Assembly: GCA_000004695.1 (NCBI GenBank)
Contig: CM000151.3
Span: forward strand, 3,104,001 to 3,168,000
Origin: Dictyostelium discoideum
Lineage: Eukaryota
Length of the DNA stretch: 64,000 nucleotides
Direction: 5' to 3'
Each line of letters begins with the position of its first letter. Position 1 is the first letter of the stretch. Shown here piece by piece: positions 2,137 to 56,613 of this stretch. A program made the translations under genes and the position numbers. Under the pieces are notes generated by a model. It was not told the origin of the DNA. It saw only the letters and a program-made list of their open reading frames with translations, and searched no databases.

Positions 2137-3717
2137 ATGGGTGGATTAAAATTAATAAAAGAAAATCATTTAACAAATTATGTTGATGAGAATTTTATGC
2201 CATGGGATACATTGAAACCATCGATTCTTCAACAATATACCTCTGATGATTCAAATCCAATTCAAGTTTCTTTTATGTCAACTGGTACAAGTGGTAAAAT
2301 TAAAATTCCAATCAATCGTTTAAATAAGATTTTAGAAGAATTGGAACAAGATAAAGAAGATTCAAAATCAACACAATTCTCTCAACCTGATATCATTATG
2401 GATTTAGAAACTTTACATTCTGAATTATTAAAAGCTTGGGCTGCTGAAGAAAGAGTTAGATCTTTAAAAATTGCAATTCAAGTATGTACTAATTTTCAAA
2501 ACTAAAAAATTAAAAGTAAAATTTATTAATATATCTCTTTTTTTTTTTTTTTTAGACAGCAAAATTATTATCAGATACATCATTAATTAAATTTTATCCA
2601 AGTAAATTTGTAATTGCAACAGAGATATTAGATACATTTGGTAATTTAGTATATGATAGAATTAAAAAGAGATTACAATCATCAAAAGAAAGTAAAAATC
2701 ATGAAATATTACTAAAGGAACAAGCAAAGGAAACTTGTAGAAATTGGTTCTATAAGATTGCATCGATTAGAGAGTTATTACCAAGATTGTTTGTAGAGAT
2801 TTCAATTTTAAAATGTTATGAATTCATTCAAGGTGATGTAAACACTGAACCAAAACAAGTGATTAATCGTATCAGTGAAATGATTAGAGGTATTGGTAAT
2901 CCATTGGTTGCAAATTACATTAGAGCTTATTTGACAAGAAGATCATTCGATCTTTGTCCAGAGTATAAGAAATTCGTCATTCAATTATTGAAAGATTTCG
3001 TTTTCACTCAAAAATCATACGAGAAATCAAAATATTTAGAGAATACCTTGTCAATGTATAGAATTACTCTCACTGATTATATGGGACTATATTCACCATC
3101 ATTGGAATGGTTACTACAATGTTTGGCTCATAAAGCAACACCTGAAACTTTGGAAGAGGTTTTAGAACTTTTCAGAGAATCAAAGAATTCTCTCCTCTTA
3201 AATCATATCATTAGTTCTTTCCCACCAGAATACATTTGTAGTAATTCAACAATGTTTTCAAATTTCATAAAGGATGCCGATACTCTCTCCTATCCAAAAT
3301 ATCAACTCTATAGTACTTTTGGTGTTAATTTGGTTTTAGGTCAACCTCCAAAGAATCAAATCTTATCAATTTTAAATGATGTTTGGAAAGTTGTTACAAA
3401 CTTTGAAAATATTAAAGATTATATTTCTGTTGCTGAAGTTTTTATTGAATATGTTTTAACTCATTGTTCTGTAAGTTGTTTTTTAAATTAAAAAAAAAAA
3501 AAAAAATTAAAAAAAATAGTTTTATTAATAGTTTTTTTTTTTTTTTATCTAATAGGAAAAAGAAACAGATGTTTTCTTAAAAGATATTCTTAGACATATT
3601 ATACCAGATAAAGGTTATGAAACAATTCAATCACATCTTCAATCAATTGTTTTAAAAATTTTTACACATATCTCTGATTTTGGTAAATTAGTTTCGTTTG
3701 TAAGTTTTGAACTATAT

Positions 3718-3766
<49 letters not shown>

Positions 3767-5224
3767 TTTAATTATTATTGATTAAATTAAAAAATAATTA
3801 TTGATTTATTATTTATTTTATTTTAAATAATATTATTTAGACAAACTTTTTACCATTATTAGATTTATTTAATGGTGAATCACAAAAACAAATTAGTAGA
3901 TCAACATTAGAAGCATTATCAACATCAAAAGTTATGACATCAGATCCAATATTGATAAATACATTCCTTACCTATGGTAAAGCATTACATGATTCATTGA
4001 ATAGTCTTAGTTTCCAAGATGAAGTTAGACAAGTCACTCAATTGGTTGTAAATTGTATCAATAAGATTGATTTCGGAAGAGATGTTGAAAAACAGTTAAA
4101 CTTTTATGTAGAGTGTAGACAAACCTTTATCAATTTCGATGGTGTAAAGAATAGATTGGTCTATGGTGTTTGTGAAATTTGTGAGAAAACTTTAAATTTG
4201 GTAAAAGGTAAACATACTCCAAAGACTACCTCTTTTATTCGTGCTTGTGTTGCCTATTGCTTCATTACAATTCCATCAATTGATGATATCTTTTTAAAGA
4301 TGAATCTTTATTTAGTCTCTTCATCTGTGGCTTTACAAAATCAAGCACTCTCTCAAGCCGATGCTTTATTAAAGGCTGCCATCACTTTTATTCAAGAAAT
4401 CCCTCCAATCTTGGAGTTTAAACAAGTTAAATCAACTGAAGATTGGACAATCTCTTATGTCTCTGATTTTATCTCACTTTTAGTTGTAACTCCTGGTCAT
4501 CCTGAAAGTGGTCCTTTCTATTTAGTAAAGGCTCTTTATAAAGTCATTAAAGAATATCAATGGGAATCAAGTTCAACTGCTAAATCAAAATTATTTATTC
4601 AATTATTATTACTTTGTTCTTCTTGGTAAGTTATTAAAAATTATTATTATTAAATTATAGTGAAAAAAATTTTTTTAATTATTAATTTTATTATTATATA
4701 TTTATTTTTTTTTTTAAAAAAAAAAAGGGCACAAACTTCATTACCATATCATATTGAAAAAGTTGAATCAAATGATCAATTATTTACAGAAGATCCAGAG
4801 TTTAATACAGAATTAACAGAATTTTATAATTCATTAATTAAAGAAATTTTATATGATTTAAATCTTTTGAAAGATGAACCAGATAATTTAGTAAGGTATT
4901 TTATTTTTTTTTTTTTTTTCATTTTTTATTTATTTATGTTATTTAATATTAACATTTATTAAAAAAAAAAAAAAAAATATATTATAGACACAGAAAAAAG
5001 TTGGTATCATTTGTATTGATTTAATAAATGCATTATTAAATGTTGGTGAATTAAATAGTAAGACAGCATCATTAATTTTCAATTTATATAATATGGCAAA
5101 GAAAATTATACCATCAACCTGTTTCAATGAAATTACATATTTAAAGAATACTCTTGCTTTTATTGGAACTCTTGAATCTAAAATGGGTCAGGATATTTTT
5201 AATAAACTTTCACAACAACAATAA
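2137..5224 (+). CDS. Six-exon gene encoding a VPS35-family alpha-solenoid protein (retromer VPS35-like, possibly a VPS35L/retriever-type subunit). Exons 2137..2481, 2556..3470, 3556..3699, 3841..4625, 4728..4890, 4988..5224.
   Basis: Consecutive ORF-track segments join in frame through GTATGT/GTAAGT...TAG introns of 74-130 nt. Phases are consistent: exon 4 ends TG and exon 5 supplies G, giving W. The motif ELLPRLFVEISILKCY resembles the VPS35 PRLYL motif. This is a long helical-repeat protein. The first in-frame ATG is at 2137, but the frame is open back to 1822, so the 5' end may lie upstream. Confidence 0.55.
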
Positions 5225-13780: not shown

Positions 13781-14163
13781 TTATTTCATACCTTTTAATT
13801 GTTGAACTTTTTGAGCTAAAATTTCATCAGTTAAATCTTGTGAAGGATTTTCAGAAAATAATGAAACATGAATTGGTGAAAAGAATTCATCAATCTTACC
13901 TCTATGAGTTGTTAGACGACCTTTAACCATTGGTGAAACTGATACGCCAACAAAGGTAATTTGAGCATGTTTTGGTTGAACGATACCATCGATAACATCA
14001 GTGGTCGCAACGATACCATAGTTTACATTTTGATCCTTTAAATGTGAGACTAACTCCTGAAGACCACCAGTACCTTTACCAACTAAACCTAATCTTTCTT
14101 TATCTTCATAACCAATTAACATCCAATTAATTGGATCAGATGATGTTTTAACTTGTTCAACTA
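13781..14163 (-). CDS. Second ADF-H unit directly downstream of the first, out of frame, with no ATG before its N-terminal NW.LIGY motif. It is either a fused second domain (two-ADF-H protein) or a truncated or decaying duplicate.
   Basis: NYELKKIVEQVKTSSDPINWMLIGYEDKERLGLVGKGTGGLQELVSHLKDQNVNYGIVATTDVIDGIVQPKHAQITFVGVSVSPMVKGRLTTHRGKIDEFFSPIHVSLFSENPSQDLTDEILAQKVQQLKGMK. The frame is open from 14163. The only ATG (14122) lies after the first helix. Confidence 0.4.
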
Positions 14164-14169
14164 TTTTTT

Positions 14170-14541
14170 TTAATTCATAATTTCAGTTTCACTTAATTCA
14201 CTCTTTAATGATGCAATGATTTCAACATTATAATGACCAAGTAATTTTGTAACTGATGTTTTATTTACACTGTATTTGGCTTTTTCAATGGCTTTAACAT
14301 TATCACCAATAAATGTAATATAAACGAATCTATCAGTTGGAATTCCATCAACATGATCAACTACTCTGAGAATTGCATAAACCATTGATGTATCATCAAA
14401 ATGTTCAATTAATTCATTAATACCTTTAGTACCAGTTGATAATAATTTAATTTTATCTGGTGATCCATCATAACTTTAAAAAATAAAAAAAAAACAGGAA
14501 AAAAAAGATAAAAATAAAAAATTAATATCTGAGATTTTTTA

Positions 14542-14573
<32 letters not shown>

Positions 14574-14754
14574 AGAAATAAAATTACCCAACTAATAACC
14601 AATTTGTGGCACTATCTGTTTTGTGGACAGATTTAACTGCATCATTAAAATCTTCAAGATTTGATACAGAAACGGAATTACCAGCTCCTGGGGTGCTCAT
14701 TGAGCCTGCTTTTCTTTCAGCTAATGAAAATCTTAATTGGCCATCTGTTGACAT
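14170..14754 (-). CDS. Coactosin/Abp1-like ADF-H (actin-depolymerising-factor homology) protein of 156 aa. Exons 14754..14588 and 14473..14170.
   Basis: MSTDGQLRF...DSATNWLLVG|YDGSPDKIKLLSTGTKGINELIEHFDDTSMVYAILRVVDHVDGIPTDRFVYITFIGDNVKAIEKAKYS... This is the ADF-H pattern (NWxLxGY, VxYAxxRV, KFVxIxWxGxxV-like). GTAATT...AAAG intron, phase 2. Confidence 0.7.
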
Positions 14755-14794: not shown

Positions 14795-14857
<63 letters not shown>

Positions 14858-41927: not shown

Positions 41928-43088
41928 TTATTTATTAAAAAAAGAAGGTGTAACTATATTAATATTATTACAATTTGAACAAGATAATTGAATTTCATGA
42001 TTTGAAGTTAATGTATTTAAAATTGGTATCATTGGTTTTGAATAATATAAACCTGTACATTTCTTTTGAGAACAATAAAACTTTGAAATCCAATTATCCA
42101 TTGAATCAATTGAATTTGAATCACCATTACATCTTGGACAAATACAATCAAAGTAATAACCATACTTTAATTCATCTTTTCTATCTTGTATTGGTTGATC
42201 TAATTCAATATAAGATATTGTCAATTGGTCACCCTTTTTAATTGGATATAATGATTTAAATGTCATATTACTACCATCTCTAACATCTGTACAATTTGGT
42301 ATACAAGAATGATTAAAATAACTACTACTTGGTGATACTGCAACACCAATACACTTATCATTCTTTGTCCAAATTCCAAATTGATTACATCTAGTTTTAT
42401 GTATAATTGATCTACTTTTTTCATTAATTTTCCTAATCATTTCAATTTTATCATCATTATTAATTATTGATTTTGTTGTTGTTGACCCTAATAATACTAA
42501 ATTAAACAATTCACTTATAAATTCAACGATTGAATCAATTCTTTCTTTTGCTGCTGGATTTGATTCTTCTGTAACTTGATTTTCTACTAAATCAAAAACA
42601 TCATCTAATGTATTTGTTAATTGTTCATTATCATTATTATTATTATTGTTGTTATTTAATTGTTGTTCAATAAATTTATTATTTAATAAAATATCTTGAT
42701 AATATCTTGATAACAAACCAACGATCATTCTAATTTCTGTAAATGTTTCAATATCAAAATTTGGATAAACTTTTAATTTTGGTGATTTTAATTTTTTATA
42801 AAATTTACATTCATAATGTTGATGTTTATTAATATTTTCATTTTTACATTGTTCATTACAATACCAAATTTCATTACATTGATTACATTTTAATGATAAT
42901 TTAATAACTGATGGTAATTGTTTAATACAATTAAAACATGATGTTGTTTTTAAAGTTTCTGATGTAACTGCAAAATATGATTTACATTTTAATAAATCTT
43001 CTCCAATTTGAATATCACGAGTTGCTATTAAATAACGACCTTCATTCTCTGAACTTTTTAATTCTAATCCATTAAAAGATTTAAACAT
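41928..43088 (-). CDS. SET and MYND domain (SMYD-type) lysine methyltransferase, paralog 1, intronless, 386 aa.
   Basis: MYND zinc finger CFNCIKQL...CNQCNEIWYCNEQCKNENINKHQHYEC. SET core FGIWTKNDKCIGVAVSPSSSYFNHSCIPNC...ELKYGYYFDCICPRC (post-SET Cys cluster). Confidence 0.8.
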   Translation of the reverse strand: MFKSFNGLELKSSENEGRYLIATRDIQIGEDLLKCKSYFAVTSETLKTTSCFNCIKQLPSVIKLSLKCNQCNEIWYCNEQCKNENINKHQHYECKFYKKLKSPKLKVYPNFDIETFTEIRMIVGLLSRYYQDILLNNKFIEQQLNNNNNNNNDNEQLTNTLDDVFDLVENQVTEESNPAAKERIDSIVEFISELFNLVLLGSTTTKSIINNDDKIEMIRKINEKSRSIIHKTRCNQFGIWTKNDKCIGVAVSPSSSYFNHSCIPNCTDVRDGSNMTFKSLYPIKKGDQLTISYIELDQPIQDRKDELKYGYYFDCICPRCNGDSNSIDSMDNWISKFYCSQKKCTGLYYSKPMIPILNTLTSNHEIQLSCSNCNNINIVTPSFFNK

Positions 43089-43333: not shown

Positions 43334-43872
43334 TTAATAATTTGGTTTATTTAAATAAAAATTTGAATTAACAATTAATTGATCATTACAAGTTGAACAT
43401 GATAATTGAATTTCATGATTATCAATGTTGGTTAATGATTGTAGTGATAATTTTAATTTTGAATAATATAAACCTGTACATTTCTTTTGATGGCAATAAA
43501 ATTTTGAAATCCAATTATCTAATGAATCCTCTAATTTACCAGTTGGATCAATATCTGTTGAATTACATCTTGGACATTGACAATGAAAGTAGTAACCAAA
43601 TTTCAAATAATCTCTACGTCTTTTAGTTGATTTATCTAATGCCAAATAAGAGATATTAATTTGGTCACCTTTTTTAATTGGAAATAATGATTTAAATGTC
43701 ATATCACTACCATCTCTAACCGATTCACAATTTGGTATACATGAATGATTAAAATAACTACTACTTGGTGATACTGCCATACCAATACATTTATCATTCT
43801 TTGTCCAAATTCCAAATTGATTACATCTAACTTTTTGAATTAATGGTCTAATTAATTTAATTAATTCTTCAA

Positions 43873-43962
<90 letters not shown>

Positions 43963-44575
43963 CATTACTATTATTATTTATTGTTAATTTTAATATATTT
44001 ATAATATATTCAATAATATTATCAATATATTCTTTTGCTACACTATTTGTTTCTTCATTTATATCATTTTCTACTAAATCTAATACACCATCCAATGTAT
44101 CTTTTATAAAATCTTCTTCATCATCTTGTTGATTATTTATTATTATTGATGAATTGAATTTATTATTTAATAATTTATCTTGATAATATCTTGAGAGTAA
44201 ACCAAGTATTATTCTGATTTCAGAGTATGAATCGAAATCGAGTTTTGAATTTTGAATTAATTTTGGTGATTTTATATTGTTGAAAAATGCACATTCATAA
44301 TGTTGATGTTTTGCTTGATTATCTTGTTTACATTTTTCACTACAATACCAAACTTCATTACATCCAAAACATCTTGGTACTTGTTGAGGTGATGGTGATT
44401 TAATTAACTTTATACAATTGTAACAACTATTCTTTTTAAAATCTTCACATGTAACTGCAAAATATGATTTACATTTTAATATACTCTCTCCAATGTCAAT
44501 ATCTCTATTTGCTATAATATACCTTCCCTCTAACTCTGAATTCGATAATTTTAATCCATCAAAAGATTTAAACAT
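43334..44575 (-). CDS. SMYD-type SET+MYND methyltransferase, paralog 2, intronless, 413 aa. It contains a poly-Asn insertion.
   Basis: It is about 70% identical to paralog 1 over alignable regions (MFKSFDGLKLSNSELEGRYIIANRDIDIGESILKCKSYFAVT...NHSCIPNC...YLKFGYYFHCQCPRC). The (ATT)n run at 43869-43960 encodes a 40-residue poly-N loop that is absent from paralog 1. Confidence 0.8.
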
Positions 44576-53832: not shown

Positions 53833-54892
53833 ATGAAATTAAATTATAATTTTTATTTTTTAATAATTTTATTAATATTTTTAATAATTAATAAAAATCA
53901 AAGTCAAATTGTTAAAGGACCAAAAATTTGGTCAAAACAAATTATAGATACAACATTTATGTTAAATCAAGGTATAAATTTCACAGTTAATAATATTACT
54001 AATGATTCAAATAAAATGTATCAAAGATATGATTGGTCATTTATGAGATTTTTCATACATAATAATAAAAGCAAATTATTAATGTCTACAGATTATCATC
54101 CAAGAGTTGACGAATTCACTACAATAAAAATACCAAATACTAATTTCATGGTTCAAAATGAGCATTATACAGTTTGGGCAGAATTCCCAGGTTTAAAAAA
54201 TATTTCAACATTTACAAGTGTTAGAGAGAATCAAACATTTCCATGCACATTTAATAATAGTATTGGTGTAATGGAAACTCTAACAAATTATACAGATTGT
54301 AAAAATAATACAAGTGGAAATTATACAAAAGAAGTTATAGTGAATACTGAAACTTTTAAATTGTATCCAATAATTTTACCACCAAAACATATATTTTCAA
54401 ATTTAACTCAATCATTTGTAAATTATTTTACAATTATTGTTCAATTAGAGAATGGTAAAATTGTTGATGCTGTTTGGGATGGTGATAGAATTCCTGGTAT
54501 GTGTGAAAAACAGTGTGATCAATGTATTGATTCTCAATGTGGTGTAAAAGTTAAGGATATGAAATGTAATGAATTAAGAGATAATGATAAATTATCAAAT
54601 TCAACAATAATTAATGGTACAACAACAACAACAACAACTACTACTGGCACATCAACAACTACACCATCTTCTACTCCGATTTTAATTAGAGATGGAATAC
54701 CAATTAATGGTTGTCAAGTTAAATCTTTTATTGCTTGGGCTGGTGTAGATAGGTTGGGTAAACCTTGCCAATCAATTAATAAAATACCTTCAAAATTTCA
54801 AGAATATTCTGCAACTTCAATAAAGAAAATTGGTACTGGTTTATTAACTGATTTCTTATATCGTGTTAATGACCAAAATAATCCAAATACTC

Positions 54893-54897
<5 letters not shown>
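53833..54897 (+). CDS. Secreted Cys-containing protein, family member B (354 aa), intronless paralog of the 34626 gene.
   Basis: Signal peptide MKLNYNFYFLIILLIFLIINKNQSQ. It shares all the conserved blocks listed for member A, plus a Thr-rich linker (TTTTTTTTTGTSTTTPSSTP). Confidence 0.75.
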
Positions 54898-55374: not shown

Positions 55375-56613
55375 ATGAAAATTTTAAAATCATTAATTAT
55401 TGCATTTTCAATTGTTGGTGCAGTATTATCAAGTAATCAATGTAATGAAGATTATGAATGTGGTGTTGGATATCCATATGCAGCATGTAATGGTGGTTTA
55501 AATGTTTATCCAGGTATTAGTATGGATGGGAATGATAATTTAATTATTGCAGGTAAATTTAATAGTTCACAAGGTGGTCCATTTGGTACACCAAAAATGT
55601 TTAATATTCCAACTTCAGGTAATGGAAGTAATGAAATTTCTCAAAGAATTAATATCAATGGTGAAATTGAAAGTGGTGCAGGATCATTCAAACTTTATTC
55701 ATTCTATGATTATTTACCCCAATCAAATTATTATTATGTATTAATGAATCAAGGTGGATCAGCACCAATTTTCTCACTTATAGATGCAAATAATGGTGGT
55801 GATAAAGTTAAATATGTTTTCAATATTTTCAATACACCATTCGTTCCAATTTTTGATGATATTGAAAAATCAATGATCTATGGTGCTTATGGTATTTATA
55901 AATTAAATAAATTACCAACACAAAGAAGTGATGCTCAAGATGCAACATTAATTTATCAATCACAAATTGTTAATGGTTTAGCAAAAGATGGTAATGATTT
56001 ATATATGTCAACTTATGATGGTAAATTCTTAAAAGGTAAAGCTGATTGTTCAAATTGTACAAAAGATCAATTGATTGAAATTGGTAGTGATACTGATGCA
56101 AGTCATTTAACTGATTTCTTAGTCGAGGGTGATTTAATTGTATTCTCTCATTCAAATGGTATAACTGCTTATTCAAAATCTGCTAACTCTAATCAAGCCA
56201 TTAAATTAATCACTGGTGAAAATGTAATTTCAATGGTTTCAAAGGGTGGTGTCATTTATTATACAACTAAAGATGGTATTGTTAAATCAATTGGTATTGA
56301 TGGTAAAAATGGTAAAACTATTTATACACCAACTTCCAATCATCAATGTCAAGCTGCTGTTGGTTTCCAATCAATTGATGGTGTTTGTAAAGGTAAAACC
56401 TTATGGTATAATGGTATTCCAACTTGTACTCCATTAGGTGAAGGTGGTATCCCTGCTCAATGTTTCACAAGTGTTGATTGTGGTCCAACTCCATATTTCA
56501 CTTGTAATGGTACTTGTGGATGTGTTAATAATTTCAGTGGTTTAGATTGTACTCATTGTGATGGTAATGTTGAATGGTTAAATGGTATCCCATTATGTCA
56601 AATTCCACAATAA
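55375..56613 (+). CDS. Secreted protein (412 aa) with a C-terminal laminin-type EGF-like Cys module. Function unknown.
   Basis: Signal peptide MKILKSLIIAFSIVGAVLS. The C-terminal Cys pattern is CQAAVGFQSIDGVCKGK...CTPLGEGGIPAQCFTSVDCGPTPYFTCNGTCGCVNNFSGLDCTHCDGN. It is a complete ATG..TAA ORF. Confidence 0.6.
   Translation: MKILKSLIIAFSIVGAVLSSNQCNEDYECGVGYPYAACNGGLNVYPGISMDGNDNLIIAGKFNSSQGGPFGTPKMFNIPTSGNGSNEISQRININGEIESGAGSFKLYSFYDYLPQSNYYYVLMNQGGSAPIFSLIDANNGGDKVKYVFNIFNTPFVPIFDDIEKSMIYGAYGIYKLNKLPTQRSDAQDATLIYQSQIVNGLAKDGNDLYMSTYDGKFLKGKADCSNCTKDQLIEIGSDTDASHLTDFLVEGDLIVFSHSNGITAYSKSANSNQAIKLITGENVISMVSKGGVIYYTTKDGIVKSIGIDGKNGKTIYTPTSNHQCQAAVGFQSIDGVCKGKTLWYNGIPTCTPLGEGGIPAQCFTSVDCGPTPYFTCNGTCGCVNNFSGLDCTHCDGNVEWLNGIPLCQIPQ

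Follow-up and report, generated by a model that had tools for sequence, protein, structure and literature searches.

A two-domain ADF-H gene of Dictyostelium discoideum, very probably broken by a recent deletion in its linker

One gene on the minus strand of the D. discoideum DNA analysed here, a stretch of 64,000 nt that is referred to below as the window, appears in two pieces: an ADF-H domain that runs into a premature stop codon, and a second ADF-H domain stranded in another reading frame behind it. The comparisons described below make it very probable that the two pieces are a single conserved gene for a protein with two ADF-H domains, recently broken in this strain, which is AX4 or one nearly identical to it, by a deletion of about 196 nt in the DNA coding for the linker between the domains. 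As an event this is an ordinary strain-specific gene truncation.

Layout of the locus

The features of the locus are collected in Table 1. Exon 1 encodes an N-terminal peptide, GQLRFSLAERKAGS, and then the start of ADF-H domain 1 as far as ...NWLLVG. Spliced together, exons 1 and 2 give the 156-aa open reading frame ending ...SETEIMN-TAA that an earlier note on this DNA had described, and Pfam recognizes Cofilin_ADF (PF00241) in residues 38-155 of this first unit (E=2e-24, 86 bits). The intron that separates the two exons is missing from contig L005, an intact allele with an uninterrupted 351-aa reading frame that looks like a transcript, and orthologous introns are found at the same position in L001 (126 nt), L003 (89 nt) and L004 (91 nt). 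As judged from these alignments, the intron is a genuine one.

Table 1. Features of the tandem ADF-H locus, in window coordinates
Feature	Position	Strand	Remarks
Exon 1	14588..14754	-	ATG 14754-14752; aligns to 4-206 of spliced contig L005
Intron, 114 nt, GTAATT...AAAG	14474..14587	-	Removal reproduces orthologue reading frame
Exon 2 to premature stop	14170..14473	-	Remainder of ADF-H domain 1; TAA 14172-14170
Stranded second ADF-H domain, -1 (= +2) frame	13781..14182	-	PF00241, E=1.4e-15
32-nt GT..AG segment	14161..14192	-	Joining 14193 to 14160 reproduces P0002 exactly
Deletion junction, 4-bp GAAT microhomology	14173..14176	-	L001 alignment and overlapping BLAST segments
A8 run	14164..14171	-	Same length in intact L005-L010; reads L-K-K-I in frame

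The second ADF-H unit that the earlier note had recognized in the +2 frame is equally clear. It reads NYELKKIVEQVK...QQLKGMK, includes the peptide IDEFFSPIHVSLFSENPSQDLTDEILAQK, ends at a stop at 13783-13781, and covers positions 2-125 of the 125 in the Cofilin_ADF profile with a score of 57.6 bits; the gathering cut-off of PF00241 is 22.4 bits, and both units lie above it. The two units are 26% identical to one another (E=9e-18). The frame of domain 2 is open from a TGA at 14185-14183, and its first ATG is the Met of MLIGY (14122), beyond the first helix, which bears out the observation that no ATG precedes that helix. The same unit had been said to begin 10 nt after the stop, and here the coordinates need correction: its KK codons begin at 14170 and overlap the stop, and the two open frames share 10 nt (14182-14173).

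The N-terminal peptide GQLRFSLAERKAGS forms residues 1-18 (window 14754-14700, minus strand), ahead of domain 1, and is conserved from Dictyostelium to environmental relatives. It is predicted to be disordered (pLDDT <50) and could be a regulatory or phosphorylation site. The window as a whole is 21.8% G+C, and just upstream of the start codon, at 14800-14855, lies a run of about 55 A residues (T on the gene strand). In a near-identical second assembly, L002, the run is shorter by 20 nt, so its length is either unstable or poorly determined.

Intact orthologues and the linker deletion

A conceptual fusion of the two units was used as the query in a search of 5.8 billion proteins, which returned 12 proteins. 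All 11 orthologues consist of one continuous two-domain protein in which both units are covered. Intact proteins of 337-356 aa are encoded by other D. discoideum isolates, D. firmibasis, D. dimigraforme and D. citrinum, and likewise by Tieghemostelium lacteum, Acytostelium subglobosum and the source organisms of several environmental sequences. Their parts follow a common order. First comes a conserved N-terminal peptide, LRFSLAERKAGS; ADF-H domain 1 follows and ends ...SETEIMNKIQDASGSRNR; a linker rich in Ser and Thr, about 50-70 aa long, then runs to the conserved sequence ...PAVNTKSVGLTFNNESELK(Q/K)IVEQVK that leads into domain 2; and the C-terminus, directly after domain 2, reads ...QQLKGMK and is conserved in the form ...QxLKGxK. 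Neither the window units nor any of the orthologues match a Pfam family other than PF00241. The earlier note had suggested a comparison with orthologous dictyostelid loci; every relative turned out to carry one continuous in-frame gene, and none carried two separate genes.

One public gene model appears to depart from this pattern. The D. purpureum model DICPUDRAFT_88560 (300 aa) lacks the linker together with the start of domain 2, but in the genomic DNA of that species (L011 1001-2141, GL871119.1) the linker is continuous and in frame (...SGSRNRTGDSKPTTTH...SVGLTFKNESEIRAAIQKVK...). Since the genomic frame encodes the linker, the model must hold a false intron.

Intact alleles from within D. 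discoideum define the lesion at the level of single nucleotides. Among these are the assembly GCA_054859355.1 (L001), which is labelled D. discoideum and has an intact gene at the syntenic locus, and six alleles from Logan assemblies of public runs (L005-L010), the exons of which are about 99% identical to the window. Synteny is conserved, with a gene of about 5,500 aa on one side of the locus and one of about 846 aa on the other. Over roughly 7 kb around the gene, L001 differs from the window by about 2% in coding-rich aligned segments and by more in the spacers, and the Logan alleles differ from it by about 1%. A difference of about 2% is high within one species.

Alignment of the window with L001 is interrupted once, by a clean gap of 199 nt with identical flanks. 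The distance from the N156 codon to ATAGTT is 8 nt in the window, 204 nt in L005 and L006, and 207 nt in L001, and the missing linker-coding DNA thus amounts to 196 nt relative to L005 and L006 and to 199 nt relative to the more distant L001. Both numbers have the form 3n+1, hence the shift of frame. In the intact alleles the sequence GAAT stands at both edges of the missing DNA, and one copy is left in the window; the premature TAA is formed at the junction itself, where ...ATGAAT is joined to TAAAA.... Matches to the linker DNA elsewhere in the window, as might be left by a relocation, were limited to chance matches of 24 nt or less. Because the linker is present in all sister species and outgroups and synteny is conserved, the deletion, which is the disabling lesion of this locus, is the derived state relative to the intact syntenic orthologues. 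Two of the explanations offered in the earlier note, a genuine two-ADF-H protein with a polymorphism in the reference and a recently disabled fusion, therefore prove essentially right.

The same note had placed the frame shift inside the A8 tract, and this part of its account does not hold. Intact L005-L010 carry exactly TTAAAAAAAATAG, as does the window, with the run at the same length and in frame (Leu-Lys-Lys-Ile, within ELKKIV); only in L001 is it interrupted, as AAAACAAA (Lys-Gln). Moreover, the stop takes its T from the base ahead of the run and its As from the start of the run, and would therefore survive any change in run length. An indel in the A tract is thus ruled out as the cause, since the intact alleles have the same run.

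A deletion between two copies of GAAT could have come about through replication slippage or through microhomology-mediated repair. In either case an ancestral gene for a protein of about 350 aa with two ADF-H domains would have lost 196 nt, its frame would have shifted, and translation would stop at the TAA of the junction. Domain 2 would then be untranslated 3' sequence, and the allele could yield no more than 156 aa, with a single, slightly clipped ADF-H domain.

The extent of the clipping can be gauged from the structure that AlphaFold2 predicts for the intact protein, P0001. In this model two ADF-H folds, covering about residues 29-162 and 216-350, flank a disordered stretch (166-213); pLDDT averages 71.6 over the whole chain and is mostly 80-92 within the domains. 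Mapped on this model, the deletion spans residues 157-222. Domain 1 would lose the second half of its terminal helix (151-162), and gone as well would be the whole linker, strand 216-217 and the first turn of helix 220-232.

Where the gene is intact, both of its domains are under strong purifying selection. In comparisons with D. firmibasis and D. dimigraforme, dN/dS is 0.06-0.09 over the first part of the gene and 0.01-0.02 over domain 2, and values this low between species mean that the intact gene is functional and constrained. When the window is set against four intact alleles, no private change is found in the first part and two are found in domain 2, both synonymous; the amino-acid sequence of domain 2 is identical to that of P0001. 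The lack of any private amino-acid change in either domain points to a recent lesion, though two private substitutions give no power to date the deletion or to judge relaxed constraint. We infer a very young truncation or pseudogene allele. An undecayed domain 2 fits a very recent lesion, and it would also leave room for continued use of that domain.

Ways past the premature stop

One alternative to a deletion, that the reference is in error and the true genome has an intact linker, is very unlikely. The setting is one in which assemblies might go wrong: the region is AT-rich, the linker is low-complexity Ser/Thr coding sequence, and two accessions per protein for this segment of AX4 chromosome 2 imply that the segment is duplicated. 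The junction, however, is a clean microhomology deletion and not a homopolymer miscount, the linker DNA is found nowhere else in the window, and the identical junction recurs in L002 (GCA_054883475.1, a 3.6-Mb contig in which 3001-3970 corresponds to window 14754-13781). Over 7 kb the two sequences are 99.6% identical, with 3 mismatches and 24 gapped positions in 3 gaps, most of which are differences in homopolymer length. Because homopolymer lengths differ elsewhere, L002 is not a copy of the reference, and because the junction is the same, the deletion is not a miscount in one assembly. That said, the two may stem from one laboratory lineage sequenced twice, in which case L002 would not be an independent isolate.

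No AX4 protein for the locus was found among the homologues or their clusters, whereas neighbouring reading frames match AX4 proteins exactly; this would be expected of a locus that was never annotated or is marked as a pseudogene. The products of the 156-, 113-, 71- and 56-aa open reading frames are absent from a collection of 15 billion proteins, an absence that has no bearing on expression, and no evidence from raw runs, for or against the deletion allele, came up.

Three other reading frames in the window, at 41928-43088 (minus strand), 53833-54897 (plus) and 55375-56613 (plus), match AX4 chromosome 2 proteins exactly; the proteins are DDB_G0273589, XP_644417 and DDB_G0273145 (= DDB_G0273599). 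Each of the three has two EAL accessions, and one has two gene ids. The window seems to lie in a part of chromosome 2 of which AX4 carries two copies, and the broken ADF-H gene would then be present there twice. The first of these frames (386 aa, DDB_G0273589) belongs to a tandem pair of paralogous SET/MYND-domain reading frames on the minus strand; the exact sequence of its partner, at 43334-44575 (413 aa), is not in the protein collection.

If the deletion is real, domain 2 might still be made as a product of its own that starts at the Met of MLIGY, as the earlier note had proposed among other explanations; ribosomes would have to initiate internally, or reinitiate, at that codon. This is no more probable than an error in the reference. 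The ATG lies 48 nt past the stop with an intact 113-aa reading frame behind it, and the absence of private amino-acid changes from domain 2 would agree with continued translation. Such a product, however, would be missing strand 1 and helix 1, along with the Trp that is invariant in the NW motif, and the residues required for the Pfam match start as early as KKIVEQ. No space is left for a promoter, and none of the relatives has such an arrangement. The proposal finds no support.

Splicing offers another route past the stop. It had been stated that no GT..AG intron can bridge the stop, but the 32-nt segment listed in Table 1 does so, in frame, and GenBank holds a corresponding model, KAM9952279.1 (P0002), a fused two-domain protein of 275 aa annotated on L002. 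Although the segment has GT..AG ends and its removal restores the frame exactly, it is implausibly short, and its splicing is, if anything, slightly less credible than separate translation of domain 2. Its 32 nt compare with 114 nt for the real intron of this gene and lie far below the median of 104 bp (mean 133 bp) reported for D. discoideum introns (PMC4683709). The donor, GTGAAA, is unlike the GTAATT of the real intron, and L005, a spliced contig, reads straight through the GTGAAA donor as exon. Judged on the model of the intact protein, the product would also have no linker, and it would be without the helix that closes domain 1 and the beginning of helix 1 in domain 2. Against these mean and median lengths the segment does not pass as a spliceosomal intron, and KAM9952279.1 is judged to be an annotation artefact, a repair by the gene-finder that hides the truncation in the annotation of L002. 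Both KAM9952279.1 and DICPUDRAFT_88560 mask the true structure of the gene and need correction.

Recoding had also been proposed. Whether as a programmed -1 ribosomal frameshift or as transcriptional slippage on the A8 run, it can be set aside: the frames overlap (14182-14173) next to the run, but no X XXY YYZ heptamer precedes the stop (the sole one, A AAA AAA, starts at its last base), the downstream RNA fold is ordinary (z = -1.0), a change in run length leaves the TAA in place, and the relatives are all simply in frame. Heptamer, downstream structure and conservation in relatives, the marks of a programmed -1 frameshift, are thus all lacking.

Relation to known ADF-H proteins

With a broken two-domain gene as the preferred reading, the question becomes what kind of protein the intact gene encodes. 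ADF-H proteins are usually divided into five classes, ADF/cofilin, twinfilin, Abp1/drebrin, coactosin and GMF (PMC8727941). Among sequences in the PDB, the best matches are drebrin for domain 2 (5y1z, E=2e-11) and drebrin-like protein for domain 1 (1x67, E=3.5e-11), followed by coactosin-like protein (about 5e-8) and yeast Abp1 (4e-7); no twinfilin chain was found at E<0.01. Foldseek searches with the single domains likewise place coactosin-like protein, drebrin and Abp1 at the top, with TM scores of 0.79-0.89 and 22-27% identity, against 13-20% identity to cofilins, twinfilin and GMF (12-17% for twinfilin domains). Full-length twinfilin (7ccc_B) is the top match to the whole model, at 12% identity and by virtue of its two-domain layout. 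By these sequence and fold comparisons each domain is nearer the coactosin/Abp1/drebrin subclass than cofilin, twinfilin or GMF, in keeping with the assignment in the earlier note of coactosin-type, not twinfilin-type, domains.

The ADF-H domains of coactosin, Abp1 and drebrin bind along the sides of actin filaments and do not sever them. Two such side-binding domains on a flexible linker could bind bivalently, along one filament or between two. By analogy, the intact protein probably binds F-actin through both domains and acts as a tether, bundler or stabiliser.

Tandem proteins of this kind extend well beyond the dictyostelids. When 1.84 billion cluster representatives were searched with a profile, 240 proteins matched at E<1e-30, and among the best 150 of these, 80 have two domains, 53 have three and 15 have four to eight. 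The only named organism among the three-domain matches listed is Planoprotostelium fungivorum (PROFUN_11132, 501 aa); the other three-domain matches are environmental or transcriptome sequences labelled hypothetical. The N- and C-terminal motifs of the dictyostelid proteins are confined to a small subgroup of the tandem set. That set (P0020-P0168) has 2-8 coactosin/drebrin-type ADF-H domains per protein, reaches 1504 aa, and consists mostly of environmental eukaryote transcripts.

Literature searches on tandem, two, three, four or multiple ADF-H domains, including those of Amoebozoa, found no description of such arrays, and a search for a D. discoideum coactosin pseudogene found none either. 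The earlier note had expected a tandem protein with coactosin-type domains to be unusual; this stands for the literature searched and fails for the sequence databases, where such proteins are common. The five-class scheme (PMC8727941) does not cover tandem arrays of coactosin/drebrin type, which are numerous in environmental eukaryote data and uncharacterised.

These observations permit a broader reading, which we put forward tentatively and as rather less than an even bet: laboratory D. discoideum may be a natural truncation mutant of an actin-binding protein that belongs to an undescribed class of 2-8-domain coactosin/drebrin-type ADF-H proteins, with a range taking in Dictyostelia, Planoprotostelium and many uncultured eukaryotes. 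If so, decades of work on the Dictyostelium cytoskeleton would have been done without the full-length two-ADF-H protein, wild isolates with an intact allele would differ in actin organisation, and the 156-aa remnant might still act as an extra coactosin-like protein. Independently of this broader reading, the reference strain of a major model for actin biology very probably lacks the full-length form of a protein that is kept under strong purifying selection in all the other dictyostelids examined. Since other D. discoideum isolates have intact alleles, natural mutant and wild type can readily be compared.

As a lesion the deletion is routine, and the remaining interest of the locus lies in a strain without the full-length protein and in an unstudied family. 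Compared with known truncation alleles and unitary pseudogenes flanked by microhomology, the present allele shows the same features, namely intact orthologues, a single derived deletion that shifts the frame, 4 bp of homology at the junction, no further decay and no annotated protein in the reference, and there is no difference in kind.

The protein is less easily placed. Coactosin (COTL1; coaA in D. discoideum) offers the closest fold for each domain (1vfq/1t2l, TM 0.86-0.89, 25% identity), and 'Coactosin' is the name that UniRef assigns automatically to the orthologues. Yet coactosin is a single ADF-H domain of about 140-150 aa, whereas the ancestral gene here encodes two domains, a long linker and conserved terminal peptides; none of the intact orthologues is a single-domain protein, and only the truncated allele of the window would be one. 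The Abp1, drebrin and drebrin-like proteins (mAbp1, HIP-55) supply the best sequence matches in the PDB, and an ASGxR motif follows domain 1, but those proteins have an SH3 or a helical, charged C-terminal region and neither is present here, where PF00241 stands alone. Twinfilin, like the intact orthologues, has two linked ADF-H domains, an arrangement that is disrupted in the window; the linker here is longer, however, and the domain sequences are not of twinfilin type. The intact protein is thus a twinfilin-style tandem built from coactosin/drebrin-type modules, and it belongs to neither family as these are defined.
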